NCBI GenBank assembly: GCA_965214095.1
Contig: OZ243938.1
Span: forward strand, 4,032,001-4,096,000
DNA: 64,000 nt
Reading direction: 5' to 3'
From: Candidatus Poribacteria bacterium
Lineage (GTDB): Bacteria > Poribacteria > WGA-4E > WGA-3G
Shown: positions 8,612 through 51,512 of the stretch, piece by piece
Position numbering within the stretch: position 1 is the stretch's first letter
Layout of the letters: each line of letters starts with the position of its first letter
The notes under the pieces: generated by a model
Databases searched by the model: none
What the model was told of the DNA's origin: nothing
Seen by the model: the letters and a program-made list of their open reading frames with translations, nothing else
Made by a program: the position numbers and the translations under genes

Positions 8612-9322
8612 ATGAATAATTTCGCTTTTTCAATTATGATCTTTTTTCTAATCGCAATCCTGTTCATTATGTCTGTTGACATCGCTTTTGCGCGAACGTT
8701 TAACAATGACTTTGAAACAGGAGACCTTACCGATTGGGAAAAAACGGGAACAGCGTTTGATTTCCAACCAACTTGGGGTGATAACCCAACTGCTCGTAAC
8801 AGAGGTCAACCCTCACAACACCAAGGCGATTGGTGGCTTGGTCTTGCTGAAAGATACCAAGGACCGGAAAAGGGCGCAGCACTCGGACAGAATCCAGGAG
8901 ATTTGGAACAGGACTCAAACGGCAACGTTGCTCCAGATGCACCCCAAGGCACATTAACCTCTATTGAGTTCACAATTGTCGGTGAATCTATGAATTTCCT
9001 AATGGGTGGAGGTAGCCGTGCTTGGGGAACTGCCGAACCTTGTTGTGTTAACCTTGTCATTAATGAAGAGGTCGTTAGAACAATGACCGGTAGTAACACA
9101 GAAAGTTTGACACGTAGAGAGTGGGATGTAGCTGACTTGAAAGGACAAATCGCTCAACTTGTCGTAGTAGATCAAAGCAGTGGTGGATGGGGTCATCCTA
9201 ATTTTGACGATGTACATCAAGCTGATGCAGGTGGAGATAATATTCCATGGGCACAGGTGACTGCCGTTGACGCACGTGGAAAGTTAGCCGTCAGCTGGGC
9301 ACAGATGAAAAAGTACTATTAG
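8612..9322 (+). CDS. Secreted beta-sandwich (CBM-like module resembling accessory domains of GH32 enzymes) with C-terminal GKLAVSWAQMKK tail
   Basis: AGGAGG RBS, signal peptide ending AFA, FETGDLTDW...NFLMGGG...WDV...GGWGH motifs. Confidence 0.75.
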   Translation: MNNFAFSIMIFFLIAILFIMSVDIAFARTFNNDFETGDLTDWEKTGTAFDFQPTWGDNPTARNRGQPSQHQGDWWLGLAERYQGPEKGAALGQNPGDLEQDSNGNVAPDAPQGTLTSIEFTIVGESMNFLMGGGSRAWGTAEPCCVNLVINEEVVRTMTGSNTESLTRREWDVADLKGQIAQLVVVDQSSGGWGHPNFDDVHQADAGGDNIPWAQVTAVDARGKLAVSWAQMKKYY

Positions 9323-9330
9323 ATAAAATA

Positions 9331-9358
9331 TTCGGTTCATGTTTCTTCATGAACTGAA
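9331..9358. terminator. Hairpin between the tandem paralogs
   Basis: TTCGGTTCATG-tttctt-CATGAACTGAA inverted repeat. Confidence 0.5.
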
Positions 9359-9396
9359 TATATCATAACTATTCTAAACAGAAGGAGAAATGACTG

Positions 9397-10110
9397 ATGA
9401 ATAAATATGCTTTATCACTCCTGATTATCTGTTTTCTTGCAATCTTTGTCATTATGTCTGTTGACACTGCTTTTGCACGATCATTTAACAATGACTTTGA
9501 AACAGGAGACCTTACCGATTGGGAGGAGAAAACAGGAGATGCATTTGATTTTCAACCCACATGGGGAGATAACCCAACAGCACGAGACAGAGGACAACCC
9601 TCAAAACATCAAGGCGATTGGTGGCTTGGACTTGCAGAGAGATACCAAGGACCGGTTAAAGGCGCAGCACTTGGACAGGAACCAGGTGATATGCAACAGA
9701 ATGCTCAAGGTGGTGAAGCACCTGATTTCCCACAAGGCACTTTAACCTCTATTGAATTCACTATTGTCGGAGAAACTATGAACTTCCTTATGGGTGGTGG
9801 CAACCGTGCTTGGGACACTGCAGAACCTTGCTGTGTCAACCTCGTGAGTAATGGCGATGTCGTTAGAACCGTAACAGGAGATAACAACGAAACAATGACG
9901 CGCAAAGAGTGGGATGTTTCTGATCTAAAAGGTGATACAGTTCAACTTGTTGTTATAGATAATAGTAGCGGAGGTTGGGGGCACCCAAACTTTGACGATG
10001 TACATCAAGCCGATAGAGACGGAGATAATATACCATGGGATAGAGTGCTTGCTGTTGATGCTCGCGGAAAGTTAGCTGTCAGTTGGGCGCAGATGAAAAA
10101 GTATTACTAA
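9397..10110 (+). CDS. Secreted beta-sandwich protein, tandem paralog of 8612..9322
   Basis: Collinear high identity with the upstream ORF; identical last 19 aa. Confidence 0.8.
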   Translation: MNKYALSLLIICFLAIFVIMSVDTAFARSFNNDFETGDLTDWEEKTGDAFDFQPTWGDNPTARDRGQPSKHQGDWWLGLAERYQGPVKGAALGQEPGDMQQNAQGGEAPDFPQGTLTSIEFTIVGETMNFLMGGGNRAWDTAEPCCVNLVSNGDVVRTVTGDNNETMTRKEWDVSDLKGDTVQLVVIDNSSGGWGHPNFDDVHQADRDGDNIPWDRVLAVDARGKLAVSWAQMKKYY

Positions 10111-10130
10111 ACTGAACCGACACAGTAACA

Positions 10131-10153
10131 GTAGGCGCGCTTTCTAAGCGCGC
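10131..10153 (+). repeat. GTAG-type REP palindrome between convergent genes
   Basis: GTAG-GCGCGC-TTTCTAA-GCGCGC. Confidence 0.6.
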
Positions 10154-10181
10154 TTACATCTCATAATTCAACACGCTTCCA

Positions 10182-11135
10182 TCATGGCGAGATTAATTCC
10201 AATCCCGCTCTTTCCCGAAACTTATTATATGTTTTCAATATCCCTTCTTCCATCGTATATGCAGGCGTAAATCCCATCTCATCAGCAATAGCAGATGCGT
10301 CATAGTCCCACGAAATACCGAATACACCCGGTTCCAATGTAATCTGAGCATCAGGCACCAAAGATTCCAAATATGCAACCCCCTCTTTGACAGGTCGGAT
10401 GCCCCCTTTAATATTGAAAACACGCGTCTTCGTCGTCGGGCATGTGCATGCCATGACAATTGAACTTGAAACATCCTCAACATATTGCCAATCCACAGAG
10501 TCGTCTCCAAATGGACATACGTGGGGTTTACCCATCGCAACGTCTTCAATCATCTTTGTCGTGAATGAACTCATACCCCGAGTCCTACCTACACCATAAA
10601 CAGCAGTAAACCGTAGTCCGATTGAATCAACACCGTAAGCATCAAAATAATGCATCGCATATCTCTCATTGAGAGACTTGCATGCACCATAGATAAACTT
10701 TGGGTAGTGCGGTGCATCGTTGAGTATCTGTTGGTGGTTGTAATCTTCAGGAGAACCGAACACCGCGACACTACTTGCCCACACAACACGTTTTATATCA
10801 AAAACACGTGCAGCTTCTAATATATTAATTGTGCCTTCGCAAACTATTTTCAATGCTTGGGGAGGATTCGCATTGCAAGCTGGCACTTGCCACGATGCGA
10901 GGTGAATTATACGATCAATCTCGTGTTCCTGCACTGTACGTAAGACATGTGGAAGGTCAGTTATGTCTCCTTGAACAAAAGTTAGACCTTCAATTTGCGC
11001 ATCTGTGAGTACCATTTTTGGAATGGTTAGGTCATAAGCAAAATCGTAAACGACCACTTTTTCACCAGCGGTTAAAAGATCCCGAATTACATAACTACCG
11101 ATGCAGCCCATACCACCGGTGAGTAGATATGCCAT
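10182..11135 (-). CDS. NAD-dependent epimerase/dehydratase (extended SDR)
   Basis: TGGMGCIG, ASSVAVFG, YGACK, LRFTAVYG. Confidence 0.92.
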   Translation of the reverse strand: MAYLLTGGMGCIGSYVIRDLLTAGEKVVVYDFAYDLTIPKMVLTDAQIEGLTFVQGDITDLPHVLRTVQEHEIDRIIHLASWQVPACNANPPQALKIVCEGTINILEAARVFDIKRVVWASSVAVFGSPEDYNHQQILNDAPHYPKFIYGACKSLNERYAMHYFDAYGVDSIGLRFTAVYGVGRTRGMSSFTTKMIEDVAMGKPHVCPFGDDSVDWQYVEDVSSSIVMACTCPTTKTRVFNIKGGIRPVKEGVAYLESLVPDAQITLEPGVFGISWDYDASAIADEMGFTPAYTMEEGILKTYNKFRERAGLELISP

Positions 11136-11188
11136 ATAAAATACTCCATAATAATGTTGTGATATTGTTATCTATCTGAAATCATTTT

Positions 11189-11524
11189 TCACTCAGGTTT
11201 GTCCATATTCATCGGTTCATCCACATTCACGAGGATATCATCACCCTCAATTTTCACAGGATAGATGGGTAGTTTCTCCTCACCTGGCCAAACACATTCA
11301 CCTGTCTTAACATCAAACTCCCACATGTGCATCGGGCAGGTGACACAGTTCTTGTCAATGAAACCGTAAGTCAATATCCCGCCAAGATGTGGACAAATAT
11401 TGTTCATGGCGAAAAATTCACCTTCAACATTATAAATACCGACTAAAACACCTTCAACTTTGACACCGATACATCTACCGGGTTGTATCTGTTCAGTTGT
11501 CGCAGCTTTTACAAATTGTGACAT
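11189..11524 (-). CDS. Rieske [2Fe-2S] ferredoxin
   Basis: CPHLG...CPMH ligands. Confidence 0.92.
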   Translation of the reverse strand: MSQFVKAATTEQIQPGRCIGVKVEGVLVGIYNVEGEFFAMNNICPHLGGILTYGFIDKNCVTCPMHMWEFDVKTGECVWPGEEKLPIYPVKIEGDDILVNVDEPMNMDKPE

Positions 11525-11549
11525 ATCTGTTCATACTCCAATCGTTGTA

Positions 11550-11664
11550 ATACCAATTCTAATAATAAATTTCCTTTTTGAATTAGAATGTCCGAGGCGC
11601 AATGAATTGCGCGACTACGAACCATCTATATTTTGAAGGGTATGTTATTTTTTAGAAATGGTAT
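11550..11664. mobile_element. MITE-like cassette with TIRs enclosing one GTAG-REP
   Basis: Left ATACCAATTCTAATAATAA vs reverse-complemented right ATACCATTTCTAAAAAATAA; internal GTAGTCGCGCAATTCATTGCGC (minus strand, 11597-11618). Confidence 0.65.
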
Positions 11665-11722
11665 AATATATGAATCGAGATAAACGATTCTTTCCATCCT
11701 ATATTTTCAACACAGATAGACA

Positions 11723-13324
11723 TTATCGTGATATGACTTTACCCTCTCCGCGTGGATCAGTACCACCATCTTGACATATTCCTCCATCCCACAGACGAAT
11801 TGCATGACCTGGTCCACCAATACCACCGCTTGCTGAAATATCATGCCCAAGTTTTCTCAATCCTTCAAGCGTTTCTTCACCAGCACGAGATTCCACCTGA
11901 ATTGGTTCAGCACCATCACAGTGAAAACGCGGAGCATCTAACGCAGCTTGCGCGCTGACTTGCATGTCAATTAGACTAACGCTGATATTAAGTTGATTGT
12001 TCTGGATCGTACGACCGCCAGGTATACCATAAGTTGCAAAAGGCATTCCGTCCAATGTTGCAAGGCAAGGACCCATATTGTGGAGTGGACGTTTTCCAGG
12101 TCCAATAGAGTTTGCCAAACCGGGTCTCGGATCAAAACGACCCACACCGTGTCCAAATAGCAGACCAGTTCCAGGTACAGTTACCATTGAACCGAATCCA
12201 CCACCGTGTGTCTGCGTCAACGATACCATATTCCCTTCCGCATCAGCAGTAGAGATATGACTTGTGCAACTCATCGGCTCATAGTAGACTACTTCACCGG
12301 GTTGAGGTGTTTCAAGTCCTGACTTCAATTGTTTACTGAGTTTCGCTGTGAAACTATCAGACAACTCTTCATCTATATCAATATCAACGAAAGCAGGATC
12401 CCCAAAACGACGAAGCCTTTCAACCCAACATATTTTCATTGCTTCGGCAAAGAGGTGAAACCTTTCTGTGAGAGTCATTCCAGCAACGTCATATCCTTCC
12501 ACCAAACGAAGCATCTGCAAAGTGGTTAGTCCTCCTGCACCGAGTGGCGAGGTATAGACAGAATACTCACGGTACTGGATTTTGTAAGGATCTGTAATAA
12601 AGGGACGGTAATTCTTCAGGTCATGATATGTCAAACACCCACCTAATTCCTGAATATGGTTTGCGATTGTTTCTGCGATATGTCCTTCGTAAAATGCTTT
12701 GTGTCCACCTTCAGCAACTGCTTCCAAGGTCCTTGCAAGGTCAGGATTAGTGAGAACTTCACCTCTTTTAGGCGGGGTGCCATTTTTAAGGAACACACGT
12801 GCTGTTTCAGGAAACTCTCTCTTCCAACGTTCAGCATTTCCTGCAATCCCACCACGATTAGCACCATTGGGTGCGTATCCGTAACGAGCAGAATTGATAG
12901 CAGGACGTAACACATCAGAAAGTGGAAGACTGCCATACTCATTTGATGCTAAACAGAGACCTGCGACAACGCCTGGCACTCCAATAGATAGCGGTCCGTG
13001 AACATTTACACGTCCCGGAACACGGTATCCAGCAACTGCATCGGGGGCATCCTCAATTGTGAACATATCTTCGGAAGCGGAGGCAGGTGCAGCACTGTTG
13101 TAATCAATCGCTACAACATCTTGCGTTTTCTTACGATAGATAAGCATACAGCCGCCATAACCAGCAATACCGTTATGCGAAGGTTCAACAACTCCTTCAG
13201 CAAACGCAGCCGCCACAGCAGCATCAACTGCATTACCACCTGCAACCAGCATGTCAAATCCTGCTTTTGCAGTGCGAGGATGGGGACCGACGACAGTCCC
13301 ATATTTCCTTTTGTTTGAATTCAC
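11723..13324 (-). CDS. ggt: Gamma-glutamyltransferase family protein
   Basis: GGNAVDAAVAAA, GVPGVVAG, nucleophile-region CTSHISTAD, PGKRPLHNM, DPRGEG; start uncertain (GTG 13324 vs TTG 13354). Confidence 0.9.
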   Translation of the reverse strand: MNSNKRKYGTVVGPHPRTAKAGFDMLVAGGNAVDAAVAAAFAEGVVEPSHNGIAGYGGCMLIYRKKTQDVVAIDYNSAAPASASEDMFTIEDAPDAVAGYRVPGRVNVHGPLSIGVPGVVAGLCLASNEYGSLPLSDVLRPAINSARYGYAPNGANRGGIAGNAERWKREFPETARVFLKNGTPPKRGEVLTNPDLARTLEAVAEGGHKAFYEGHIAETIANHIQELGGCLTYHDLKNYRPFITDPYKIQYREYSVYTSPLGAGGLTTLQMLRLVEGYDVAGMTLTERFHLFAEAMKICWVERLRRFGDPAFVDIDIDEELSDSFTAKLSKQLKSGLETPQPGEVVYYEPMSCTSHISTADAEGNMVSLTQTHGGGFGSMVTVPGTGLLFGHGVGRFDPRPGLANSIGPGKRPLHNMGPCLATLDGMPFATYGIPGGRTIQNNQLNISVSLIDMQVSAQAALDAPRFHCDGAEPIQVESRAGEETLEGLRKLGHDISASGGIGGPGHAIRLWDGGICQDGGTDPRGEGKVISR

Positions 13325-13418
13325 GCTGTATTCCTTTGTAAATGGATAATGCAAGGTATTTTAAGGTGTTTTCATTGAATTGTCAAGTTTTTCTGGTATG
13401 GATAGTATAGGAATAGTG

Positions 13419-13447
13419 TTGACACATCAAGCATGCTCTTATAAAAT
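13419..13447 (+). promoter_or_regulatory. Sigma70-type promoter
   Basis: TTGACA-N17-TAAAAT upstream of ORF 13572. Confidence 0.5.
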
Positions 13448-13571
13448 TGAATGCGTATAAACCTTTGATTATAGTCCTTATTCACAAAATAATTCTACTG
13501 ATATTTAATCAGATATCGGGTGTCAGCAAACTAACTTATACCATCAGAAACAATAAACTGAGAGGAAAATA

Positions 13572-14822
13572 ATGGATTCAAATACACAACAGAATGAAGC
13601 TCAGAATGTTGAACAGGAAAAGAGAATCATCAACTTATGTACTCAAAACTTGAATACTATCGGAAAAGCGGTTCAGTTATATCTCAACGACAACGATGAT
13701 TACCCTGAGTGGTTATCCGATCTCCACCCCAATTATCTACAAGATGCAAGCAACCTGATCTGTCCTGCTGATAAAGAGAATGGACAGGTATTTCATTCAT
13801 TCAATGAAGATAAAAATAGATCTATCAGTTATGATTACCAGTTTCACCCAGAGTACCGAGAGGAAAAGTCTGAACAACGTTTGATTTACGGAGATGCTAT
13901 GCCACTGGTGCGTTGCAGACACCATAAAAATCAAGAGTTTACATGTCTTAACTTGAGTTTTGCTTTTGAAGTATTTACTTCATCTGGAAATTGGGAATAT
14001 ACGCCAGAGGACATGTATGGAAGTCCAGAAAAATCCATAGAAGCCTTGGAAGCAGGACTAAAGCACCAACCAAAAAACCATCTTGTCGCCGAGTTTGCAT
14101 ATACAACATTAGTCCATCTCTATATTGATGCTGGACGTATGGAGGATGCCAAGAAGTTTGTTAACCGCCTTAAAATGACAATGAATCAGGACAATCTAAA
14201 GACATGGTTTCTCCTTGGTGAATTACTTGAGATGACGAATCAACGTGAAGAGTGTCTGACTATTTTTGAACAACTTGAAGAACAATATCCAGAGGACCGG
14301 GATTTACTCAACAAACTTGCATATATCAACGACAAACTTGGAAATTCTGAAGCCGCTGCAGCCTATGATCGGAAATCCGATCCGAAATATGAACTGTGGG
14401 GTAAAGTTGTATCAGATTTTTCTACAATTGACCTTGATGGGAAACCAATTTCACTCCAGCAATATCGTGGGAAGGTTGTATTACTTGATTTTTGGGGTAT
14501 ATGGTGTGGATTCTGCAGTCACGAAATGCCTAATCTCAAAAAGGTCTATGACACCTACAAGGATCAAGGATTTGACATCATCGGAGTCAGTCTTGATGAT
14601 GAAGAAGCAGTACTACGAGAATATATAAAAGAGAACGACATCCAGTGGCGACAAATTTCCAGTGGCAAAAGGTGGGAAGAGGATCCGCTTGCGAAGCAAT
14701 TTGATATTACCGGTATTCCAACACAGTGGCTTATTGACAAAGATGGCACATTAATCTCGCACAAAGCAAGAGGAGAGGAGTTAAGGAGTTTAGTTAGAGA
14801 CGCACTCAAGAATGATTCATAA
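13572..14822 (+). CDS. TlpA/redoxin-domain protein with TPR-like middle region
   Basis: GKVVLLDFWGIWCGFC, GIP..WLIDKDG; helical TPR-like repeats upstream. Confidence 0.85.
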   Translation: MDSNTQQNEAQNVEQEKRIINLCTQNLNTIGKAVQLYLNDNDDYPEWLSDLHPNYLQDASNLICPADKENGQVFHSFNEDKNRSISYDYQFHPEYREEKSEQRLIYGDAMPLVRCRHHKNQEFTCLNLSFAFEVFTSSGNWEYTPEDMYGSPEKSIEALEAGLKHQPKNHLVAEFAYTTLVHLYIDAGRMEDAKKFVNRLKMTMNQDNLKTWFLLGELLEMTNQREECLTIFEQLEEQYPEDRDLLNKLAYINDKLGNSEAAAAYDRKSDPKYELWGKVVSDFSTIDLDGKPISLQQYRGKVVLLDFWGIWCGFCSHEMPNLKKVYDTYKDQGFDIIGVSLDDEEAVLREYIKENDIQWRQISSGKRWEEDPLAKQFDITGIPTQWLIDKDGTLISHKARGEELRSLVRDALKNDS

Positions 14823-14951
14823 AATTGAATAATTCCATAGTCAGGTGCGGCTACAACCCTTCCACACTTCACACATCCGATTTTGTTTGACATACAAAAG
14901 ATGAACGGGTAAAATGATAATAAAACAGAATCATAACATAAGGAAAGGAAG

Positions 14952-15755
14952 ATGCAAAAATTAACATTTCTATCTGTCATTCTGTGTTTTCTCCTTGTTA
15001 CTTCAGTGAATAGTGAATTTCTACCAGAGGATAACAGTGCCGATTTTGGGCTGAAATATGGAGAATCAATCACAGGCATACCTCCCAGTAAACCCAAAAT
15101 AGATGGTAAACTTGATGACTGGAGATATGCTGTCTGGGTTGCCTTTGACTCTGAAAAAGAACTACACCGTGGTAAAGGTTCGTGGAAAGGCAAAGATGAC
15201 CTGACAATGACATGGTCAACGATGTATGATGAAAATAATTTCTATTTTGCTGCTGCAGTAATGGATGATATCTTTGCTCCAGCTGCAAATGCTGCTGAAC
15301 CCTGGGGCGGTGATTCAATATTTTTGTATGTGGACTGGGAAAAACTAGGTGTCGGTGTCCCGGTCTTTAAACCCAATTTTGCACGTATCAACAATAAAGC
15401 ACTTGTTACAGACTTCAGTGCAGTTAAAAATCAGAATGTACCTAACTCAGACATCGCTATTACACCTACTCCAGAATTGGGAGAAGGTGGAATGATTTAC
15501 GAAGTAGCTATGCCGTTTGATTGGATTACCAAGGAAAACATTGAAGACGGATCCGAAATCGGGTTTACTCCTGGATATGAAGAGGGGACAGATAACCCCG
15601 AAAAAAGAGCTGATTTAGTCTTTATGTGTTGGAACGGTTTGAATCCTGACGATTCCGCGAATCTTGGAACATTGAAGTTTAGTGGGCCACTCGCTGTCAG
15701 TTCAAAAGGAAAATTAGCGATCACTTGGGGATATTTGAAGAATTCTGATAGATAA
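14952..15755 (+). CDS. Secreted CBM9/DOMON-like sugar-binding protein with C-terminal GKLAITWGYLK tail
   Basis: Signal peptide, PKIDGKLDDW, YDENNFYFAAAVMDD, GDSI, YEVAMP motifs. Confidence 0.78.
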   Translation: MQKLTFLSVILCFLLVTSVNSEFLPEDNSADFGLKYGESITGIPPSKPKIDGKLDDWRYAVWVAFDSEKELHRGKGSWKGKDDLTMTWSTMYDENNFYFAAAVMDDIFAPAANAAEPWGGDSIFLYVDWEKLGVGVPVFKPNFARINNKALVTDFSAVKNQNVPNSDIAITPTPELGEGGMIYEVAMPFDWITKENIEDGSEIGFTPGYEEGTDNPEKRADLVFMCWNGLNPDDSANLGTLKFSGPLAVSSKGKLAITWGYLKNSDR

Positions 15756-15819
15756 TAATCTACATGCTAAAAGTGATTGACAATGTTCGGTCGGGAATAT
15801 TAGACTATTCATATACCTT

Positions 15820-16713
15820 ATGCCAGAAAAAACAAACAAGCAAGAAGAACTTTTTATACAACTGCTTGAAAAGATAGACATTTTACTAACTCGTTTGGAA
15901 GCAAACACAAAAGACGCATCAAACGACTGTCTTGACAACTATATCGCATTTAAATGGCAAACGCAAAACGGAAACGGACACCTTGTGCCTGTTAAACACC
16001 CGCATCTTGTTGATAGTGCCGATTTAATCGGTATAAATTCGCAATATACCGTCTTAGATCAAAACACACGACAGTTTCTTCATGGTGTCCCCGCAAATCA
16101 TGCACTATTGTGGGGAGACAGGGGAACGGGAAAGTCATCACTCGTCAAAGCCATGTTGAAACAATATTCGGCACAAAGACTTCGTTTAATCGCTGTCGGA
16201 AAAGATGGACTTGCTCATCTACAAGAAATCGCAGAGCTGCTGTGGGACAGACCAGAACGGTTCCTCCTCTTCTGTGATGACCTTGCTTTTAGCGATCACG
16301 AGCCGGAATATCGCGAACTGAAAGCGATTTTAGAAGGTGGTATTTCTGAATGTCCAGATAACATCCTCATATATGCAACATCCAATCGTCGACACTTGAT
16401 GCCACGACAAGTAGCAGAAAATCAGTATCCACAGAATGAGGAAGATGAACTTTATCCACGGGAGGCAACAGAAGAAAAAGTATCACTCAGTGACCGTTTT
16501 GGATTGCGTATCGCCTTTTACAGAATTTCTCAGAATACATACTTACAGATTGTGTCCCATTATGCACAAAAATTGGGAATTGAGATACAGACCGATGAAT
16601 TACATCGTGCAGCATTGGAATGGGAAGCATCATCCAGTGGACGTTCGGGACGTGTGGCATATCAGTTCATTACAAATCTCGTAGGACAATTAACACTTAC
16701 CGGCGACTATTAG
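15820..16713 (+). CDS. AAA+ ATPase, DUF815 family
   Basis: ANHALLWGDRGTGKSS, LFCDDL, YATSNRRHLMP, SLSDRFGL, RSGRVA. Confidence 0.92.
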   Translation: MPEKTNKQEELFIQLLEKIDILLTRLEANTKDASNDCLDNYIAFKWQTQNGNGHLVPVKHPHLVDSADLIGINSQYTVLDQNTRQFLHGVPANHALLWGDRGTGKSSLVKAMLKQYSAQRLRLIAVGKDGLAHLQEIAELLWDRPERFLLFCDDLAFSDHEPEYRELKAILEGGISECPDNILIYATSNRRHLMPRQVAENQYPQNEEDELYPREATEEKVSLSDRFGLRIAFYRISQNTYLQIVSHYAQKLGIEIQTDELHRAALEWEASSSGRSGRVAYQFITNLVGQLTLTGDY

Positions 16714-16763
16714 GTGAAAGACCACTTACAGTTTCAATTATTTGTATATAGGAAGTTAAATTC

Positions 16764-17540: not shown

Positions 17541-17631
17541 TGTCTATCGTTAGGTTAGAAACCGCACTAAAGTATTGGAAACCACTACTACAATTGAGAA
17601 ACGTGAAAGTTGATTAGTGTTGGAGAAGTAT

Positions 17632-17661
17632 TTGACAGTCTTCATATTACTAAGGTATAAT
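17632..17661 (+). promoter_or_regulatory. Consensus sigma70 promoter directly before the mini-Rpn start (likely leaderless)
   Basis: TTGACA-N18-TATAAT, with ATG 7 nt downstream. Confidence 0.65.
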
Positions 17662-17668
17662 ACGGTGT

Positions 17669-17942: not shown

Positions 17943-18587
17943 ATGGAGGAAAATATGAAGAATGGGAGTATGTTCTGCCTAATATTAATTCTATTATTAG
18001 CAGGTATAATTCTAATACGAACTACTAACGCAGTTCCCAAAAAAGGAACCTTACGGGTCAGTGGTGATAACACTTGGATTGCCTATGTAAACGGAGAGAA
18101 GGTTGCAGAACACGTTAACTGGGATCAACCGACTGTATCAGATTTTGAATTGGATAACGGCTTTGCTGTAATCGCAGTATATGTGCACGATGCCGAACCG
18201 GGTGCTCAAGGAAGAGGAGGATTCCTCGCGGATATTGTACTAGACGACAAACCTGACTACATCGGTACTGGTGAAGATGGATGGAGATGTCAAGCAGGAA
18301 AACCTATCGCAGATCGAAATGATGGTTGGGAAGAAGTGGGTTTTGATGACAGCGATTGGGAAACAGAACTTCAGATTTATGACAAATTTGGTGCCGGAAT
18401 CTGGGGTGGAGGCGCAGCAGCAATGCGCGATATCTTTGGTGATCCAGAATGTACCGCAAATTGGGTATGGTGTGGACCAAACGATGTTGAAGACGACATA
18501 TATTTCCGCTATACAATCGGTCAACTCCCCGTTGAACCAAGTGGTAAAATCACCTCGACTTGGGGCGCATTGAAGAGCGAACGGTAA
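17943..18587 (+). CDS. Secreted lectin/galactose-binding-like protein with C-terminal GKITSTWGALK tail
   Basis: Signal peptide, GDN...YVNG, GGFLADI, WEEVGFDDSDW, ANWVW motifs; start may be ATG 17955 after GGAGG. Confidence 0.75.
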   Translation: MEENMKNGSMFCLILILLLAGIILIRTTNAVPKKGTLRVSGDNTWIAYVNGEKVAEHVNWDQPTVSDFELDNGFAVIAVYVHDAEPGAQGRGGFLADIVLDDKPDYIGTGEDGWRCQAGKPIADRNDGWEEVGFDDSDWETELQIYDKFGAGIWGGGAAAMRDIFGDPECTANWVWCGPNDVEDDIYFRYTIGQLPVEPSGKITSTWGALKSER

Positions 18588-18595
18588 ACTTATTA

Positions 18596-41152: not shown

Positions 41153-41161
41153 GAAACTATT

Positions 41162-43097: not shown

Positions 43098-43150
43098 TCC
43101 ACGTCTTTCACATAAACCATTGTAGGGTGGTGTCTCTGTGCCCGCACTAT

Positions 43151-43296
43151 TAGGCATTTTCCCCAGGCCGGTAGGTTCGGTTTCCTAACCGAACCGGATC
43201 TTCCGCTAGAACCCTCTGACATAGCGTTTGGCGCAAAGCCGGTTCGGTTAGGAAACCGAACCTACCACCTCTGGAAGGACACTAAATTGATGCCTA
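43151..43296. mobile_element. REPIN-like element with short TIRs (TAGGCAT...ATGCCTA)
   Basis: Inverted pair GGTAGGTTCGGTTTCCTAACCGAACCGG (43170-43197) / CCGGTTCGGTTAGGAAACCGAACCTACC (43239-43266). Confidence 0.8.
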
Positions 43297-43441
43297 TGGG
43301 CAAACAATTACACACTCCACACAAGGCAATTCATTAGCAATCATTCACTGTATATGGTAATATACTGAGCGAAGTACATCTAAGAAATTAACAACACTAT
43401 ATACTTGAATGTAGAGGATTTAGAAATCAGCGAGAGAACTT

Positions 43442-44155
43442 ATGGACAATTGTTGCCACGAAAAAGCAGACGAACTTGAAGAACTCCGAGAGAAACAATC
43501 CAAAACCTTGTGGATTGTCCTTGCCATCAACGGTGTCATGTTCTGTGTAGAAATGGTTGTAGGTATACTGGCAGGTTCAGTTGCTCTGCAGGCTGATTCT
43601 CTTGATATGATGAGCGATACTTTGGTCTACGGATTCAGTCTATACGCAATTGGAAAAAGTTACCGTTGGCGTGCTGGGTCTGCCTTGCTCAAGGGTAGTA
43701 TTATGGCAATCTTTGGTGTAGGCGTGTTGATCCAAAGCTGCTATAAATTTCTCGCGGGTGGAATTCCTGAGTCTAACTTCATGTTTGCCATGAGTTTAAT
43801 CGCTCTGGCTGCAAATTTGAGTTGTCTGATATTATTGTCAAGGCACAAGTCAGATGATATAAATATGCGTTCAACTTGGATATGCTCGCGAAACGACATC
43901 ATTGCTAACTCAAGTGTATTTGTCGCTGCTGCTCTCGTTGCAATCACAAACTCAATGTTGCCAGATGTGATTGTAGGTCTATTAATTACAGGTATCTTTA
44001 TTAAGTCTGCTGTCTCAGTTTTAAGAGATTCGGTGAGAGAATTGCGTGAACCGGATACCCTCCCGACACAAGTATCTGTTGTTAAGTTTGAACCTGTAGA
44101 AGAACTGTGTAGTGCGGGAATATGTCCAGTAAACGCATGCCAGTGTCAGGCTTGA
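43442..44155 (+). CDS. Cation diffusion facilitator (CzcD-like) metal transporter
   Basis: SVALQADSLDM..D, DDINMRSTWICSRNDII..; Cys-rich termini (CCH; CSAGICPVNACQC). Confidence 0.88.
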   Translation: MDNCCHEKADELEELREKQSKTLWIVLAINGVMFCVEMVVGILAGSVALQADSLDMMSDTLVYGFSLYAIGKSYRWRAGSALLKGSIMAIFGVGVLIQSCYKFLAGGIPESNFMFAMSLIALAANLSCLILLSRHKSDDINMRSTWICSRNDIIANSSVFVAAALVAITNSMLPDVIVGLLITGIFIKSAVSVLRDSVRELREPDTLPTQVSVVKFEPVEELCSAGICPVNACQCQA

Positions 44156-44158
44156 AAA

Positions 44159-45370
44159 CTATTCTGATACCAGACCTAAATCAGATGAAATTGCCTTATC
44201 CCAATCTGCTGTAAATTCCCACCAATTTGACATAACCCTATTCTCATACTTGATACCGTTGTTATGTCCAGGCATATTCTGCATCCAGTATATATACCAC
44301 TTAGACTCTATCAGTTGTTGTATCTTATCACGGTCTTTATCGGGAAATGCATACTTCAGTTTGCCATAAGTATCTACATTGACAAGTGTTTTCTTTCCGC
44401 TATTGTCTGGTGTCCAATCTTCAATATCACTTTCAACTAAGGTCATCGTTTCAGTATAGTCATAATGTTTGGTCGTATTCGGTGGCATGTGCGTCCATCC
44501 AGCACGACCAGTAATGAAGTTACCTTCTTTGTCTTGGCCAACAAATCTCTTCCAAAACAGGTCTGTATTACCAAATTGCAGTTGATTGACATGGCTCAAT
44601 ATCGCTTCCAATTGATGTCCATGATTGTGTACCGCTTCTGCATGACTTCTTCTGAAGTTTTGTCCATAAACTGTATATGTTGACTTATAGATGGGTAGAT
44701 CTGTGTTATCTCGATTACTATTGGAAATATCTCCTGTCAATGGACTTGACATGTTGGATTCCCACCAGTTTCTAAAATCCTCTGGTTTATGGATATTCGG
44801 GTCATAGCACGGAAAATCAGAGGTCACACCACCCATCCACATCCATATTTCCTTGACACCTAAATCGTTCACATAATGCTCAATGTTGAAACGTTCAAAT
44901 ATCTTATGGTAATCCGGGGAATACAGCGGCGTGCCATCGGCTAAATGCTGACTGACAGGACCCTTTGGAGTCTGCTCATAAACGGTTATATATTCCACAA
45001 CACGATAACCAATAGAAGGTACTGCTGTTGAGTTTTTATATCCTCTAAATCTGGTGCCTTCTTCAAGCATAAACTTAACCCGTTTATCAAATTGATCTAT
45101 CCTTGTTTTGAGTTCATCAAGGCTTATTTCACCTAAATCCCAAAAGTCCGGTGCTTTTGAAATATCCAGATTGATACCATCAGTAGTAGGCAGAAACCTC
45201 ATAATTACAACAGGTATTTCATTGAGATGTCCTGCTGCAGGAGTCGCTAAATATGGATCAATTTTCTCATAAACTGGCGATATTTCTTCTGCAAATACTT
45301 GTCTGGATTGCGTTAACATAACGATGAACACAACTCCTAATATAAGTGTTTTGATTTTATATATTGTCAT
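44159..45370 (-). CDS. Secreted hypothetical protein with possible zinc-binding motif
   Basis: Signal peptide ending VFA; HNHGHQLE motif. Confidence 0.7.
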   Translation of the reverse strand: MTIYKIKTLILGVVFIVMLTQSRQVFAEEISPVYEKIDPYLATPAAGHLNEIPVVIMRFLPTTDGINLDISKAPDFWDLGEISLDELKTRIDQFDKRVKFMLEEGTRFRGYKNSTAVPSIGYRVVEYITVYEQTPKGPVSQHLADGTPLYSPDYHKIFERFNIEHYVNDLGVKEIWMWMGGVTSDFPCYDPNIHKPEDFRNWWESNMSSPLTGDISNSNRDNTDLPIYKSTYTVYGQNFRRSHAEAVHNHGHQLEAILSHVNQLQFGNTDLFWKRFVGQDKEGNFITGRAGWTHMPPNTTKHYDYTETMTLVESDIEDWTPDNSGKKTLVNVDTYGKLKYAFPDKDRDKIQQLIESKWYIYWMQNMPGHNNGIKYENRVMSNWWEFTADWDKAISSDLGLVSE

Positions 45371-45493
45371 AAAACATAAAAAGAAACCCCATGGCTGTGA
45401 GGCACATGAGGGTATTAAATTGTGTGTTTTACCACTTGGCATTGAGATAAATGGAGTTACATAATGACTCCGCTCAACACATTCAAATCTGAT

Positions 45494-45850
45494 TTATTCC
45501 TCAGCTGAAGCAATAACAGAAGCAGTAAAACGCGGCTTTCCATCCATTTCTTCTATTGCAGCAACAGCATCTGTTAATGCAGTAGTATCCACTTTACCTT
45601 TCTCAACCTTCACAACGGCTTTTTCATCAGCTTGTGAAACAGTCACGACTTCTGTGACACCTGCAACATCCTTAAGTGCAGACTGCACTTTGGAAACACA
45701 AGAGCCTCAAGCCAGACCTGTTACGGCTAAGCTGATTTCTTCAACAACAATGTCTGCAGTTTGATTTTCTGCTGTGTCTTCTTTCTGCTGATTTGCACAA
45801 CCAAAGGCAACAAGCATCAAAACCACGATAAAAAACGATTTCTTCAACAT
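45494..45850 (-). CDS. Selenocysteine-containing HMA (MerP/CopZ-like) lipoprotein, 118 aa, Sec48
   Basis: ATG 45850 MLKKSFFIVVLMLVAFGC..., then AVTGLA-TGA(45707-45709)-GSCVSKVQSALKDVAGV in frame; UGA occupies the first Cys of the GxxCxxC motif. Confidence 0.85.
45674..45690 (-). promoter_or_regulatory. Candidate bacterial SECIS hairpin
   Basis: AAGTGCA-GTC-TGCACTT starting 16 nt after UGA. Confidence 0.75.
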
Positions 45851-46013
45851 TTCTTATATGTCCTCATAATAAGATAGATTATAAACACAATTAAGGATAC
45901 TTATTAGGTTTATAATCTATCTCAATCAATTTGCCTCAATCATCTTATGACAATCAAGCAATATATGTAAAAAGTATCAGATGAAGGACGGTTTAACTCG
46001 TCCTACAAGACTA

Positions 46014-46400
46014 TTAATTGGCAATAGATGCGGTAAAGCGAGCATCGGCATCATCAATTGCTTTGATGATGGTATCGTTTGTAACTTTGCCCTTTTCCAC
46101 CTTAACGACGACCAATTTTGTTTCTCTGGAAACACTGATGATCTCTTCTACACCCGTGACCTTCTTTAGTGCAGACTGCACTATGGCGGGACACGAACCT
46201 CATGTCATGCCCTCCACCTGAAAAGTCACTTCCTGATACATAGGTTTTTCTGCTGTTTTTTCCGTGGTTTTTTCCATCGGTGTTTCACCAGCGGCCATTT
46301 CGGTCTCTTCAGCCATTTCTGCTTCTTGACCCATCATAGCACAACCTGTCAGGAGTGCAAAGGTAACGAGAGTAATCAGCGCAAATTTCGCGATATACAT
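46014..46400 (-). CDS. Selenocysteine-containing HMA (MerP/CopZ-like) lipoprotein, 128 aa, Sec67
   Basis: AGGAGG RBS, LLTGC lipobox, FQVEGMT-TGA(46200-46202)-GSCPAIVQSALKKVTGV...RFTASIAN-TAA in frame. Confidence 0.88.
46167..46183 (-). promoter_or_regulatory. Candidate bacterial SECIS hairpin
   Basis: TAGTGCA-GTC-TGCACTA starting 16 nt after UGA. Confidence 0.75.
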
Positions 46401-46521
46401 CGTTATACCTCCTTTGTTATTTACATAACTATGTTATCATATTGAAATATATATTGTCAAGTTAATTATTTGGAATATAGGGTGTTTCTGGTGAAGTATA
46501 AGAATAATTGGACACACCACC

Positions 46522-46640
46522 GTAGGAGCGATCTCAGAATCGCGACATAACACAGTGATAATCGGGAATCGGAGTTCCCTCCTACACATCCAAAATCTAA
46601 AAGAAAATAAACCGTTCGTAGTCGCGCAATTCATTGCGAC
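46522..46640. repeat. Cluster of three GTAG-type REP palindromes
   Basis: GTAGGAGCGATCTCAGAATCGCGAC (46522), minus-strand GTAGGAGGGAACTCCGATTCCC (46564-46585), GTAGTCGCGCAATTCATTGCGAC (46618). Confidence 0.75.
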
Positions 46641-46642
46641 TT

Positions 46643-47437
46643 TTACATTATCTGACTTAATGAGAGCAGTGAATTTTCAACTCTTTTTCTGTTGGAATGT
46701 TCTCTATGAGCATCAAGGAAGGGAAAGATTTTCTGAAGACGTAAAAGCTGCTTTTGAACAGCTGCAGCTCTTTCAAATTGCAGTAATGCCGAAGCCGAAT
46801 TTCGTTTAGCAACCAAATTCTCTTGAACTCTTAGATAGTTGCCATCAAGCAAATGGATGATATTCATTATCGTTTCACTATAGAGTTCTTGAGTGATGCG
46901 TGCAGCACAAGGCGCATAACATCGCTTCATATCATATTGTAGACAGGCACGGTATCCTTCTTGCGGTGTGATGCTACCTTGACAAGTGCGCACCATAAAG
47001 ATACGTTGCAACACATCAATTGCCTCATCCGTCCATCTTCGACTGGAAAGTGGCCCGAAGTATCTCGCTTCATCATTATAAATCTCAGGGACTCTCTCAA
47101 GAAGTGGAAAATCATCTGCAACATTGATGCGAATATACCAAGTCTGCGTGCCATACTTCAACGCAGAATTATAGGTGGGTTGGTGTTCTTTAATAAGACG
47201 CGATTCAAGAAACAGTGCTTCCTGTTCCGATTGACACACATGATAATCTACAGACGCTGTCCATCTGATTAATCGTTTGATCTTGGAACGACGTTTCTTA
47301 ACTTTATGCACATAAGAACGGACACGTTTACGTAGACATTTTGCTTTACCTATGTACAAGATCTTACCTGATGCACCATAGAAAAAGTAGACACCTGGAT
47401 CCATTGGGATGTCTTGGACCATATCTTTCGTTAGCAT
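46643..47437 (-). CDS. GIY-YIG nuclease, UvrC N-terminal/Cho-like
   Basis: PGVYFF...LYIGKAKCLRKRVRSY, EALFLE, P.YN, YFGP, Cys cluster and UVR helix. Confidence 0.88.
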   Translation of the reverse strand: MLTKDMVQDIPMDPGVYFFYGASGKILYIGKAKCLRKRVRSYVHKVKKRRSKIKRLIRWTASVDYHVCQSEQEALFLESRLIKEHQPTYNSALKYGTQTWYIRINVADDFPLLERVPEIYNDEARYFGPLSSRRWTDEAIDVLQRIFMVRTCQGSITPQEGYRACLQYDMKRCYAPCAARITQELYSETIMNIIHLLDGNYLRVQENLVAKRNSASALLQFERAAAVQKQLLRLQKIFPFLDAHREHSNRKRVENSLLSLSQIM

Positions 47438-47765
47438 ATTTGTGTTTTCTGTGTAATCAGTGGGGTTTCCTGAAAATGACGATATTATTCTGTTTGACTC
47501 GGACTAAAAAAACTGCTAATTTGTTGTAACGAAATATTGCAAAATTGAGAAGATGAAATGTCAATAAACAAGCATTATTACTTTTTCGCGCTTAATGCAC
47601 TACAACCCCTTTTACAGTATAGTTTCTCCGCTATCAACAACGCTTTTAAAATGACTACGTATATTTTATAGGTTTGGTTACAAAATAGTTGAGTTTTTTA
47701 CTGCTTTTTTCGAATCTTAATGAAAATTGAACTAAATGACTTCATTTTGCTGAAGGAATGTTTTT

Positions 47766-48623
47766 ATGAAACAATGGGAACCGACCACAAAGGAAAAAGA
47801 AAAATACGAAAATGATGGATATTTCATCCTTCGTAATGTCATTTCGCAAGACATTACTGCCGAACTACGCGGTGTAATCCGAAATGTCATCATGCTTCCT
47901 GAACCCGGACAGTTTGTTGACATTGACCCTATGGATCCGATGGTTGATTCTCCGCAAGGAAGAATTGCGCGATACCGAAAACTTGCTAATTTCTGTGTTC
48001 AATCCCCACTGATTTGGCTCAATATCTATGCAGGAGAAAAACTGCTCAACATAGCACGGCATTTTCTTGGGGACGACATCATAATGAAATATAACAGTTG
48101 TTTCCTAAAACCTGCACGGACTGGCAGTGTAACACCTTGGCATCAAGACAATGGACTATGGCGTGATGGGGAAACAGAACCCTTTAATTTTTGGATACCA
48201 CTTGAACCTGCAACTAGGGAAAATGGATGCATGCAATTTATACCCGGTAGCCACAAAACTGAGATAATTGAACACGTCCGATATCCTGATAGTATACACG
48301 GTGAACTCCCCCGTGAAGATGTGAAGAAGATGCTGGAAAAACATAGTGTGCATCATATTGAATTGGATGCTGGGGATGTCGTCTTTTGGCACAGTAGTAT
48401 GTGGCACTATAGTCCACCAAATAAGAGTAACAAAAGCCGCATTGCAGTTGCAGGTGTATGGACAAATCCTCAAATTATTGAAAACAGTAGACATTACTGG
48501 CAGAACTTACGTTGGGTGATGAAAAAAGGTAAAGTTTGCACACAATTTCCACCTGAAACTGTTAAGCTTGAGAACGGAAATACGGATCCTACAGAACCAT
48601 TTCGAATTGCTAAGGAATATTAG
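47766..48623 (+). CDS. Phytanoyl-CoA dioxygenase (PhyH) family enzyme
   Basis: DGYFILRNV, TPWHQD, ENGCMQFIPGSHK, WHYSPPN..R. Confidence 0.92.
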   Translation: MKQWEPTTKEKEKYENDGYFILRNVISQDITAELRGVIRNVIMLPEPGQFVDIDPMDPMVDSPQGRIARYRKLANFCVQSPLIWLNIYAGEKLLNIARHFLGDDIIMKYNSCFLKPARTGSVTPWHQDNGLWRDGETEPFNFWIPLEPATRENGCMQFIPGSHKTEIIEHVRYPDSIHGELPREDVKKMLEKHSVHHIELDAGDVVFWHSSMWHYSPPNKSNKSRIAVAGVWTNPQIIENSRHYWQNLRWVMKKGKVCTQFPPETVKLENGNTDPTEPFRIAKEY

Positions 48624-49943
48624 ATGCAAAAACCCAACATCGTTATATACCTATCCGATGATCATGGGTGGGAATACCTCGGTTGCTACGGAAACACGGA
48701 TATCCAAACACCAAATTTAGACCGCATTGCTGATGAAGGGTTGCGTTTTACACATGCTTTTACACCTACACCGACCTGTGCTCCTTCTCGTTCAACGTTA
48801 TACACAGGTCTTTATCCTGCACGACACGGGGCAATGGGAAATCACACAGAATGTCATTCACATCTTGCTACCTTACCGAAACTGCTTAGGGAACTTGATT
48901 ACCGTGTAGCCATCGCTGGAAAAACGCATGTAAAACCAACAGAACTTTTTGACTTTGAATATATCGGCGGATTTCTCCCCAAGCGTGCAGAACATCGTAG
49001 AAAATATCGCGCTGAAGGACTTGATACCGCTCCAGTTGAAGACTTCCTATCATCACATCGTAAGGAATATCCAAATCAACCGATCTGCCTTATTCTGGGT
49101 GATAGCAATCCACATGTAACTTGGGAACCGAACAAAACATACAATCCAGACGCATTGAGTCTATCCCCTTACATCGCTGATACGCCAATCACCCGAAAGG
49201 CACTTGCAAATTACTATCAAGACATAACCACTATGGACACACGTATCGGTGATGTTGACAAAATGTTGGAAAAACATGGATATACAGACAACACACTGTT
49301 CATTTATACAACCGATCACGGTTCTGAGTTTCCGCATTGTAAGTGGACGTTGTATGATACCGGTATCCGTCTACCGTTCATTGCGAGATGGCACAGTGAA
49401 ATACCTACAGCAACCGTTACAGATGCGATGATTTCACATATTGACTTCTTACCAACACTGATAGACATCGCTGGTGGCGAACCATCAAAGAAAATGGATG
49501 GTAGAAGCTACAGAAATGTTTTATGTGGACAGCAAAAGATATTCCGTGATAAAATATACGGAACGCACACACGCGATGGAAACATGAATGTCTTTCCGCA
49601 AAGGTGTGTCCGTGATAGTCAATACAAATATATACTGAATCTAAATCCTGAAAACAGATGGACAACGCATTTTACTGAAGTGGAAAGGATTCCTGAAAGT
49701 CATGCTGAAGTTTGGAACAGTTGGGTAGAAAAGGCAAAGAGTGATGCAAAAACTGCTGAACTTGTTTTTCTAACACAACATCACCCAGTTGAGGAACTGT
49801 ATGATGTCAATGCAGATCCTTACGAATTCAATAATATAGCATTTGAGGAAACATCACATCCGATTCTTGAAGAAATGCGTACTGATGTTCAAGAATGGAT
49901 GCAATCACAAGGAGATGAAGGAAAACCTGAAAATGAACAATAA
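48624..49943 (+). CDS. Sulfatase (Cys-type, N-sulfoglucosamine sulfohydrolase-like)
   Basis: PNIVIYLSDD, CAPSRSTLYTG, GKTH, TTDHG, EELYD...DP.E. Confidence 0.93.
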   Translation: MQKPNIVIYLSDDHGWEYLGCYGNTDIQTPNLDRIADEGLRFTHAFTPTPTCAPSRSTLYTGLYPARHGAMGNHTECHSHLATLPKLLRELDYRVAIAGKTHVKPTELFDFEYIGGFLPKRAEHRRKYRAEGLDTAPVEDFLSSHRKEYPNQPICLILGDSNPHVTWEPNKTYNPDALSLSPYIADTPITRKALANYYQDITTMDTRIGDVDKMLEKHGYTDNTLFIYTTDHGSEFPHCKWTLYDTGIRLPFIARWHSEIPTATVTDAMISHIDFLPTLIDIAGGEPSKKMDGRSYRNVLCGQQKIFRDKIYGTHTRDGNMNVFPQRCVRDSQYKYILNLNPENRWTTHFTEVERIPESHAEVWNSWVEKAKSDAKTAELVFLTQHHPVEELYDVNADPYEFNNIAFEETSHPILEEMRTDVQEWMQSQGDEGKPENEQ

Positions 49944-50526
49944 ATATATCAATAAAGTCATCTATAGTGTCATTTTAGTCATAACATTTGCATTTATGGC
50001 TTGTCTGGATTCAGATGACCTCAATGATATTCTAACACTTGAACCAGAAACACTACCTCCTAGTGAAGGGTTAGCAATAGGCTCAACTGCCCCTGATTTT
50101 TCACTACCAGATGCAGATGGGAATGTCCATGAACTATCTGATTATGCAGGACAGAAAGTTACTCTTGTCTTTTTTGCTACTGAAAGTTGACCGGAATGTA
50201 GAAAACAACTCGTTGAGTTGCAAAGTGGATATCAAAATATAAAAGCGGCTGGTGCAGCAGAACTAATTGTCATGAGTAGTGATAACACAAATGGAATTCG
50301 TGAATTACGTCAAGATGAAGGAATTGATTATCTGCTTCTTTCTGATGGTGATGTTGACACCATTGCTGCCTACAACGTACGAGCACAAAGCGGTAATCCT
50401 TTCTTGGCACGTCCAGCAACCTTCATTGTCAATGAAAACGGTAGAATTGCATGGGTAGACCTTGGCGATAGATATGGTCATCGCACAAATTCAGAACAGA
50501 TTATTGATGCCTTGAACGATTTGTAG
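49933..50526 (+). CDS. Selenocysteine-containing AhpC/TSA peroxiredoxin-like lipoprotein, 197 aa, Sec86
   Basis: FMAC lipobox; IGSTAPDFSLPD..LSDYAGQKVTLVFFATES-TGA(50188-50190)-PECRKQLVELQ..LLSD..ARPATFIV in one frame (UxxC). Confidence 0.85.
50206..50220 (+). promoter_or_regulatory. Candidate bacterial SECIS hairpin
   Basis: CAACTC-GTT-GAGTTG starting 15 nt after UGA. Confidence 0.65.
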
Positions 50527-50547
50527 AAATGCGTCATCGTATCCGAT

Positions 50548-50684
50548 TATAGTAAAACCATAATTATTTACACACTACGGTAGGTTCGGTTTCCTAACCG
50601 AACCGATGTTTGTTCGGTCTCATAGATGCGGTTAGGAAACCGCATCTACCAGAGAGTGTGCACACATTTTTACATTTCACTATA
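50548..50684. mobile_element. 137-bp MITE/REPIN-like element, inverted near-copy of 22488-22625
   Basis: Reverse complement aligns end to end with the 22488 element. Confidence 0.85.
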
Positions 50685-50688
50685 AAAT

Positions 50689-50717
50689 AAAAAGGGCAAA
50701 AAAATCTCTGCCCTTTT
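50689..50717. terminator. Intrinsic terminator
   Basis: AAAAGGGCA...TGCCCTTTT. Confidence 0.65.
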
Positions 50718-50733
50718 ACCTAACCATACCTAC

Positions 50734-51512
50734 CTATCGTTCACGGTCAGTTTTTATGGCTCCCCAAGTCGTAGTCAATTTTTCTGCAGGTTCTACAGGC
50801 AAGAAAGCACCATCTTTTATAGTGTTTAACTCTGCTTCAGTAATGACACGATTGAACAAGAACACTTCATCAATAATGCCCGTGAAAAATTCTAATCCGG
50901 GATGTCTTGCCCCGACCATTACTGAACCGTCAATCTGTATTACTTCAGGTGGTTTTGCACCACCGCCTACTCTTCGTCCATCATAGTAAATGCTAACATC
51001 CTTGTCTATATCATGCGTTACAGCAATATGAACCCAGTCTTGTGGTTGATTCTCATCAGTGATACCTTTCTGTGCCCAACCAGGAGCTTTAGACCAGAGA
51101 TAAGTCTTTTGATTATCATTATTAAATATCGTTGCCCAGACAAGAGACCCAGCAGCTACCATATAATTCCAAGTCGCAACTTGATTGGCTCCGCGTTTAA
51201 CCCAAAATGCAATAGAAAACTGCTTCCTTAACTGTAAACTATCGTTGATAGGAACTATTACGTACTGCTTATTTGCACCATCAAACTCAAGTGCTTTTCC
51301 ATCATATTGTCCATCAACCCATGAGGGATTTGCCATCAGTTCACCATCATTTCCGTGTGAGAACCGTCTTTGGCAGTTTTACCGTTGCCTTCATCAAATG
51401 ATAGGTATAGAACGAGTGATTCATCATCTAAACCGGCATGTGAAGCAAGAGGAACAATGAACATTGTCAGTACTGTCAAGAATGCTGCGATGATATTGAT
51501 TCGTTTCAACAC
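50734..51512 (-). pseudogene. Secreted LamG/concanavalin-like protein with C-terminal EKLTTTWGAIK tail; single-base frameshift near 51357
   Basis: AGGAGGAG RBS, GTG 51512, signal peptide and LVLYLSFDEGNGKTAKDGS in one frame; HGNDGELMANPSWVDG..GKALEFDG..WVHIAVT..FTGIIDEV in another. Confidence 0.8.

Follow-up and report, generated by a model that had tools for sequence, protein, structure and literature searches.

Sortase, exosortase, rhombosortase and type IX secretion are among the sorting machines that came to light through short C-terminal tags. The tripartite signals (LPXTG, PEP-CTERM/exosortase, GlyGly-CTERM/rhombosortase and MYXO-CTERM) combine a motif, a membrane-spanning helix and a basic cluster, whereas the type A sorting domain used in type IX secretion (T9SS; TIGR04183/PF18962) is an Ig-like fold of ~70–100 residues. 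The beta-signal of outer-membrane beta-barrel proteins is a C-terminal stretch of alternating hydrophobic residues plus an aromatic residue. Here, a tag of ~18–20 residues that has no defining part of the known tags was found at the C-termini of five proteins encoded in one 64,000-nucleotide stretch of DNA (contig OZ243938.1, positions 4,032,001 to 4,096,000; hereafter the window, C1:4032001-4096000) from a genome of Candidatus Poribacteria, a phylum not yet in culture and known chiefly for its sponge symbionts. Approximately 125 exported proteins of this genome, about 3% of its genes, bear the tag.

In summary form, the tag reads L-x-V-[ED]-[PA]-x-G-K-L-T-T-T-W-G-x-[LI]-K followed by 0–10 residues; anchored on its Trp, it is L(-12) x V(-10) [E/S/D] [P/A] x [G/D/N] K(-5) L [T/A] T T W(0) [G/A] x [L/I] K(+4). 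The 5.25-Mb genome (41% G+C) was searched as six-frame segments (3.17 million residues) with the pattern K[LIVM]..[ST]W[GAS].[LIMV]K, and all of the 71 matches were located 1–10 residues from a stop, while merely one match was found in the reversed sequences and 0, 0, 0, 1 and 0 in five shuffles. A tail profile built from these 71 tails gave 127 genome hits (at least 10 bits), of which 124 were 12 or fewer residues from the stop codon; of the three internal hits, two are proteins that carry the tail ahead of a type IX sorting domain. Among the 124 terminal tails, W and K(+4) are invariant, K(-5) is present in 119 and V(-10) in 110, and 1–10 residues (mode 3) follow K(+4). At the conserved positions, K, L, T and G are encoded with the codon usage of the genome as a whole; thus the conservation lies in the protein sequence and does not stem from a DNA repeat.

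By a crude test for a hydrophobic N-terminus, 105 of the 124 tail proteins exhibit a signal-peptide-like start, as compared with 1115 of 3196 background frames, and most of the 19 that fail are either short fragments or of uncertain start. Most tail proteins are small, with 13 below 180 residues, 102 at 180–400 and nine longer. The genome-wide profile count bears out the first-pass annotation of the window, which had proposed such a count and expected terminal hits on proteins with signal peptides. That annotation had also seen no membrane helix in the tail, and this holds throughout: the highest 15-residue Kyte-Doolittle mean in the final 25 residues has a median of 0.14 and a maximum of 1.09 over the 124 tails. 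The tag is cationic, with a median net charge of +2. The C-terminal signal of type I secretion was rejected as a counterpart, as its substrates have no Sec signal peptide, whereas most tail proteins have a signal-peptide-like start.

Inside the window, the profile matches only five genes (147 matches genome-wide at E<=10), and translation of the five frames returned exactly the tails quoted in the first-pass annotation. Genes 1 (8612..9322, + strand; 236 aa) and 2 (9397..10110, +; 237 aa) are tandem paralogs without a Pfam family, and their tags occupy, respectively, the final 20 codons of gene 1 (9260..9319, +) and the C-terminus of gene 2 (10048..10107, +). Gene 3 (14952..15755, +) encodes a CBM9-like protein of 267 aa (Pfam CBM9) with the tag at its C-terminus (15693..15752, +), and gene 4 (17943..18587, +) encodes a protein of 214 aa with a weak, sub-threshold match to a rhamnosidase-N-like beta-sandwich, likewise ending in the tag (18525..18584, +). 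Gene 5 (50734-51512, −) is broken by a one-base frameshift near 51357: a LamG domain and the C-terminal tag (50737..50796, −) are encoded in the downstream frame (50734..51336, −), and the signal peptide plus the first ~58 codons in the upstream frame (51336..51512, −). A signal peptide on all five proteins had been claimed; it was found for genes 1–4, whereas that of gene 5 is in a different frame from its tag. Where a database gives tail proteins a name, it is ‘hypothetical protein [Candidatus Poribacteria bacterium]'.

To describe the passengers, signal peptide and tail were removed from the first 71 tail proteins, which then fell into 22 BLAST clusters, the largest being LamG (32 of 71). 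The unrelated passenger families number more than 20 and are mostly lectin-like. Of the 39 members outside LamG, four belong to the window and were scanned separately; a Pfam scan of the remaining 35 identified WD40 and PD40 propellers, YWTD repeats, giants with Ig and LTD domains (Big_1/LTD), CBM9, CBM4_9, a DUF1080-type hydrolase family, GH43_C2, DUF4960 and a weak PA14, with no Pfam family for 14 of the 35. The initial description of the passengers as glycan-binding modules is too narrow. It had also been considered that the tail might be a strand of one shared domain. In the structural model of the gene 3 protein (49 homologues; mean pLDDT 88.8), the final strand spans residues 239-246, block 241-250 averages a pLDDT of 80, and residues 256-267, the tag core, are below 50; the fold thus ends at ~246 and the tag core is unpacked. 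The model of the gene 4 protein, from 19 sequences, reached a mean pLDDT of 47.7, too low to be of use. These results establish the tag as a genuine, portable C-terminal module under protein-level selection that is carried by Sec-exported proteins of many folds.

How does the tag compare with the described signals? It shares with the T9SS type A domain the C-terminal position, the Sec-exported carriers of many folds and the dozens of copies per genome, yet it is 18–20 residues long and without a model match, and the contrast in length drawn in the first-pass annotation is correct. It shares with the tripartite signals the format of a short C-terminal tag on large groups of paralogs that are small, have a signal peptide and are often lectin-like, and its V-E-P stretch is reminiscent of the P-E-P of PEP-CTERM, but membrane helix, terminal Arg cluster and model match are all missing. 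Exosortase (PF09721) had no match in this genome, which is 94.5% complete, and no search was aimed at rhombosortase or sortase families. Like dockerin (PF00404), which binds a cohesin-type receptor module (PF00963), the tag can directly precede the type IX domain, but dockerin has about 60–70 residues with a duplicated Ca-binding loop-helix, whereas the tag is one third as long and has no such loop; Dockerin_1 is absent from the Pfam-scanned tail proteins, and a dockerin-like pattern matched none of 122 tail proteins. As in the beta-signal, hydrophobic residues alternate near the C-terminus together with an aromatic, but the passengers are soluble beta-sandwiches or propellers and the aromatic is not terminal, being followed by 0–10 polar residues.

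No NCBIfam or Pfam hidden Markov model was found to describe the tail. None of 40 tails matched NCBIfam at E<=10, five whole proteins gave nothing beyond passenger-domain matches in NCBIfam at E<=1, and no Pfam model covers the tail in the five window proteins or in 35 others. In the literature covered, which does not extend to subscription journals, no paper was found that describes the motif, nor one that reports a type IX system or a C-terminal sorting signal in Poribacteria.

The tag is found throughout the phylum. Profile hits were obtained in all 41 relatives of this genome (16–142 each) and the tag was present in each of 151 genomes sampled across the phylum (nine families and 22 genera, with up to 56 hits scored per genome). 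In the most distant Poribacteria class, all of the 49 hits (30 loci) are terminal, with 0–5 residues after K(+4). The tag is ancestral to Poribacteria. A degenerate DNA pattern scanned over a species-representative collection returned at least 127 stretches; among the 127 matches listed, 116 are in Poribacteria-titled records (115 of them terminal), seven in unnamed bins (all terminal), two in one ‘Pseudomonadota bacterium' bin (terminal), one in a ‘Planctomycetota' bin (terminal) and one in Synechococcus (not terminal). The Synechococcus genome has no profile hits, and the Planctomycetota-titled genome has two, on two contigs, which reflects either transfer or mis-binning. Among 1.84 billion protein cluster representatives, 630 matched at E<=0.001, and the best 150 of these 630 are C-terminal apart from eight with more than ten residues after the match; in seven of the eight, 10–56 unrelated residues from read-through or from merged gene calls follow a canonical tail, and the eighth, an LRR protein, is a false positive. 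Contigs filed as viral (IMG/VR) yielded five pattern stretches, four of which are true terminal tails on signal-peptide proteins; three of these four contigs (loci L371, L373, L374 and L375) are at 33–34% G+C, unlike this genome.

A second lineage of tail-bearing bacteria lies outside Poribacteria. In a sample of 61 genomes from the phylum of the ‘Pseudomonadota' bin, four carry tails (4–13 each); they are mutual nearest relatives of 1.9–3.1 Mb, with the loci at 49–54% G+C, and in three of them all matches are on a contig numbered C1. No tails were detected in 37 other relatives, nor in the other 57 genomes of the sample. The second-lineage tails are terminal, keep V, K, W and K, and are located on signal-peptide proteins or lipoproteins. 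The first-pass annotation had noted that none of the lipoproteins in the window carry the tail. In this Poribacteria genome, only three of the 124 tail proteins contain a lipobox-like string; in the second lineage, lipoproteins do carry the tail. The second-lineage passengers comprise an unassigned family of 320–340 residues and a family combining an HExxH motif with ankyrin repeats, and had no BLAST match in the window's genome. In one of the four genomes (G167; 2.18 Mb), eight of the 12 tail genes directly adjoin giant genes with a prepilin-type N-terminus. A two-gene cassette is present there on contig C1 in at least eight copies (for example, 99382-102263, 1037200-1041511 and 1914696-1919415), consisting of a giant protein (590–1205 aa, prepilin-type N-terminus) and a lipoprotein HExxH-metalloprotease with ankyrin repeats plus the tag.

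Two further paralogs of the HExxH-ankyrin family end in a module of dockerin plus sorting domain instead of the tail. This second-lineage module is 52–56% identical to that of Poribacteria, as compared with a median of 35% for shared proteins; together with the swap on one passenger family, this indicates that C-terminal modules have moved between the lineages. SprA-like genes were found in none of the four second-lineage genomes, while the same search finds them in 61 of 61 Poribacteria sampled, and C25 peptidases were found in none of the four, as compared with 15 of the 37 tail-less relatives. Consistently, 2.0 of the 2.18 Mb of G167 contained no homologues of SprA, PorV or the PorU catalytic domain. 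The T9SS type A domain depends on a SprA/Sov translocon and PorU; because the second lineage has neither SprA-like nor C25/PorU-like genes, the tag is independent of a type IX-like apparatus.

In the window's genome, by contrast with the second lineage, such an apparatus is present together with its own C-terminal domain. A total of 67 frames end in a domain of 84–89 residues that starts Q-N-Y-P-N-P-F-N-P, and the four that were scanned, which served as the positive control, score 23–32 bits against TIGR04183 (cut-off 23), two of them also matching PF18962 and FlgD_ig. Below the curated cut-offs are (i) a SprA-like frame of 2196 residues (C1:2569438-2576028); (ii) six PorV-like frames (C1:1405482-1406630 and five more); and (iii) three large PorU-like frames (C1:2636073-2642528, 2779829-2786311 and 3092996-3098221). 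The GldL and GldM models had no match in this genome, but the controls were equally without match, so that this negative carries no information. A type IX-like apparatus with 67 cargo-type proteins is thereby observed in a phylum outside Bacteroidota, and many of the cargo-type proteins have a cohesin-dockerin-sorting-domain architecture.

Four of the 67 sorting-domain proteins contain a tail or tail-like stretch that ends 5–7 residues before the domain. A dockerin-like motif precedes the domain in 28 of the 67, and is found in none of the 122 tail-only proteins; genome-wide, dockerin-like motifs occur in 45 of 4173 frames and cohesin matches above cut-off number 22. Moreover, paralogous passengers (WD40 proteins and Ig-repeat giants, at 36–57% identity) end either in the tail or in the long domain, which demonstrates that the tag is interchangeable with other C-terminal modules.

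As judged from sequence, the tag may best be read as a post-export docking or retention tag with a conserved reader at the cell envelope or surface, a reading to which we assign a probability of roughly 45%. The protein would be exported by Sec with the tag at its free C-terminus, and a conserved partner would then read the tag and dock or retain the protein at the envelope or surface. Its purpose would be akin to that of dockerin or of a surface-retention tag, and it would not be a signal for crossing the outer membrane. If the sorting domain is cleaved as in Bacteroidota, the four dual proteins would end in the tail like the ~125 tail-only ones. The chief argument lies in the architecture: in this genome's multidomain surface proteins, the position immediately before the sorting domain is mostly taken by a dockerin-like module, and in the four dual proteins by the tail. 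Docking is favoured over an export signal because the tail thus stands in for dockerin ahead of an export domain that can be removed, and because the four proteins need a type IX export domain besides the tail. The partner is probably neither a type IX-like translocon nor a PorU-type peptidase, since the second lineage has neither.

Several observations weigh against docking. The tails of the four dual proteins are off-consensus, two having Leu for Trp, and could be decaying relics that do not work as dual tags. That the sorting domain is cleaved here is an assumption carried over from Bacteroidota. For docking at the surface, the ~125 tail-only proteins would have to pass the outer membrane, for which no route was identified, a type II system being present. 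Nor did a partner emerge from the genes around the tails or from those common to both lineages. The 534 neighbours of tail genes yielded only abundant paralog families (PhyH, GFO/IDH/MocA, enolase-type, FGE-sulfatase, TPR, SDR and dockerin/FG-GAP proteins), and 43 of 122 tail genes adjoin another tail gene. Of 1835 frames in the 2.0 Mb of G167, 651 match this genome; the 466 matches with more than 60% coverage have a median identity of 35%, and the top pairs read as housekeeping. With a maximum identity of 66.7%, there is no gene with the exceptional inter-lineage identity expected from co-transfer of a reader. Fifty of the shared frames have a signal-peptide-like start; of 43 picked from these, six that span two stretches of sequence were left out, and the 37 scanned are generic, namely binding proteins, S41, HtrA, BamA, PBPs and OmpA, with no partner among them.

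In any case, the tag yields a ready list of the proteins that these bacteria place in or beyond the envelope, and could serve as a peptide bait with which to find the reader. A comparative search for that reader is also made possible by the second lineage, with four tag-bearing genomes to be set against 37 tag-free relatives and the type IX-like apparatus already excluded.

The first-pass annotation had inferred a dedicated signal for outer-membrane translocation or surface attachment. As an export signal, the tag would be recognized in the periplasm by a translocon, either a type II system or another channel. The demography of the tag is that of known sorting signals, in being C-terminal on signal-peptide proteins that make up ~3% of the genes. 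Furthermore, a complete type II secretion operon (locus L224; C1:2470000-2486410), with two tandem full-length secretins of 998 and 996 aa, is followed by a tail gene 546 bases downstream on the same strand. The operon includes a GspK-like protein with a helix-hairpin-helix insert. Secretins are also present in all four second-lineage genomes, and the prepilin-type giant genes beside the tail genes of G167 point in the same direction. However, secretins are widespread, being matched in six of 14 control genomes, and the synteny of tail gene and secretin is confined to the window's genus (eight of 30 loci, its own included). In this genome, none of 122 tail genes is within two genes of a pilin-like gene. 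Moreover, a tail next to a complete type IX domain, as in the four dual proteins, would be redundant, which argues that the tail is insufficient, or not meant, for translocation. No translocation machinery was identified, and we consider an export role unlikely.

A wider formulation is similarly doubtful. In it, the tag would be a linear, transferable recognition peptide of a new envelope system or of the type II pathway, sorting or displaying ~3% of the proteome across the phylum, and would have reached an unrelated clade by gene transfer, whether accompanied by its reader or not, there addressing ankyrin-repeat metalloproteases. To our knowledge, no linear signal has been described for the type II pathway.

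The partner might also be non-bacterial, such as a component of the host (sponge) or of the matrix, or else an anionic surface glycolipid of the producer, with the tag spreading among co-resident symbionts via the common target. This would agree with the occurrence of the tag in two unrelated lineages on unrelated passengers with no detectable co-transferred reader, and with the ankyrin-repeat metalloproteases among the second-lineage passengers. The title of one second-lineage member describes it as a bin from a sample series in which a Poribacteria bin was obtained, too, and the positive charge of the tag and its invariant Trp would suit such a target. Yet the tag is found in every sampled Poribacteria lineage, the deepest classes included, and is therefore older than any single host association. 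In addition, the constant distances between K, W and K point to a specific protein as reader and not to generic electrostatics. This explanation is quite improbable in our judgement.

Alternatively, the type IX-like system would use the tag as a minimal signal or as a site of attachment, with a PorV-like shuttle (six are encoded) or a PorU-like peptidase (three) as the reader. SprA-, PorV- and PorU-like frames are all present in this genome, the SprA-like gene extends to every Poribacteria genome sampled, and four proteins have the tail right next to their sorting domain. On the other hand, the tag is conserved in the second lineage without SprA-like, C25 peptidase or PorV-like genes, 63 of the 67 sorting-domain proteins have no tail, and the tag is too short for a type IX domain and without its Ig fold. 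Such a role is disfavoured, and its likelihood appears very small.

About equally slight is the chance of a processing or turnover tag for periplasmic proteases of the S41 (PDZ-bearing, C-terminal) or HtrA type. S41 and HtrA-type PDZ proteases are present in both lineages, with three S41 paralogs in one second-lineage genome. However, these proteases are generic in diderm bacteria while the tag is restricted, and PDZ reads the extreme C-terminus, which here varies in length (0–10 residues after K(+4)) and in sequence.

Finally, an artefact, be it a motif that arose by chance, a repeat at the level of DNA or the final strand of a single common domain, is excluded by the 71 matches against 0–1 in controls, the varying synonymous codons, the more than 20 passenger clusters and the unpacked tag of the gene 3 model, nothing having been found in its favour, even though a single LamG family makes up the largest passenger cluster.

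In addition to the 41% G+C main contig, the assembly contains contig C2 (32,066 bases), which is at 64% G+C and is possibly foreign or mis-binned. The genes around the five tail genes in the window are housekeeping, such as LptFG, gamma-glutamyltranspeptidase and a cell-division cluster.

As for the frameshift in gene 5, contigs from two sequencing runs with the window's organism label are identical to the window over 50626-51700, while a related-strain contig from another study has one additional base behind 51357, with which the gene 5 frame is open. The frameshift may thus be real in this strain or an error common to both runs, which are possibly the assembly's source. Genome-wide, 13 of the 124 tail frames are fragments below 180 aa; the frameshifted gene 5 and these short tail fragments suggest frequent decay in the tail-gene family. 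Approximately 45 bases past the gene 5 stop, an element of ~86 bases (window positions 50600-50690) contains two hairpin-forming inverted repeats; it has 123 matches of at least 50 bases in this genome and exhibits very high contig depth in four runs.

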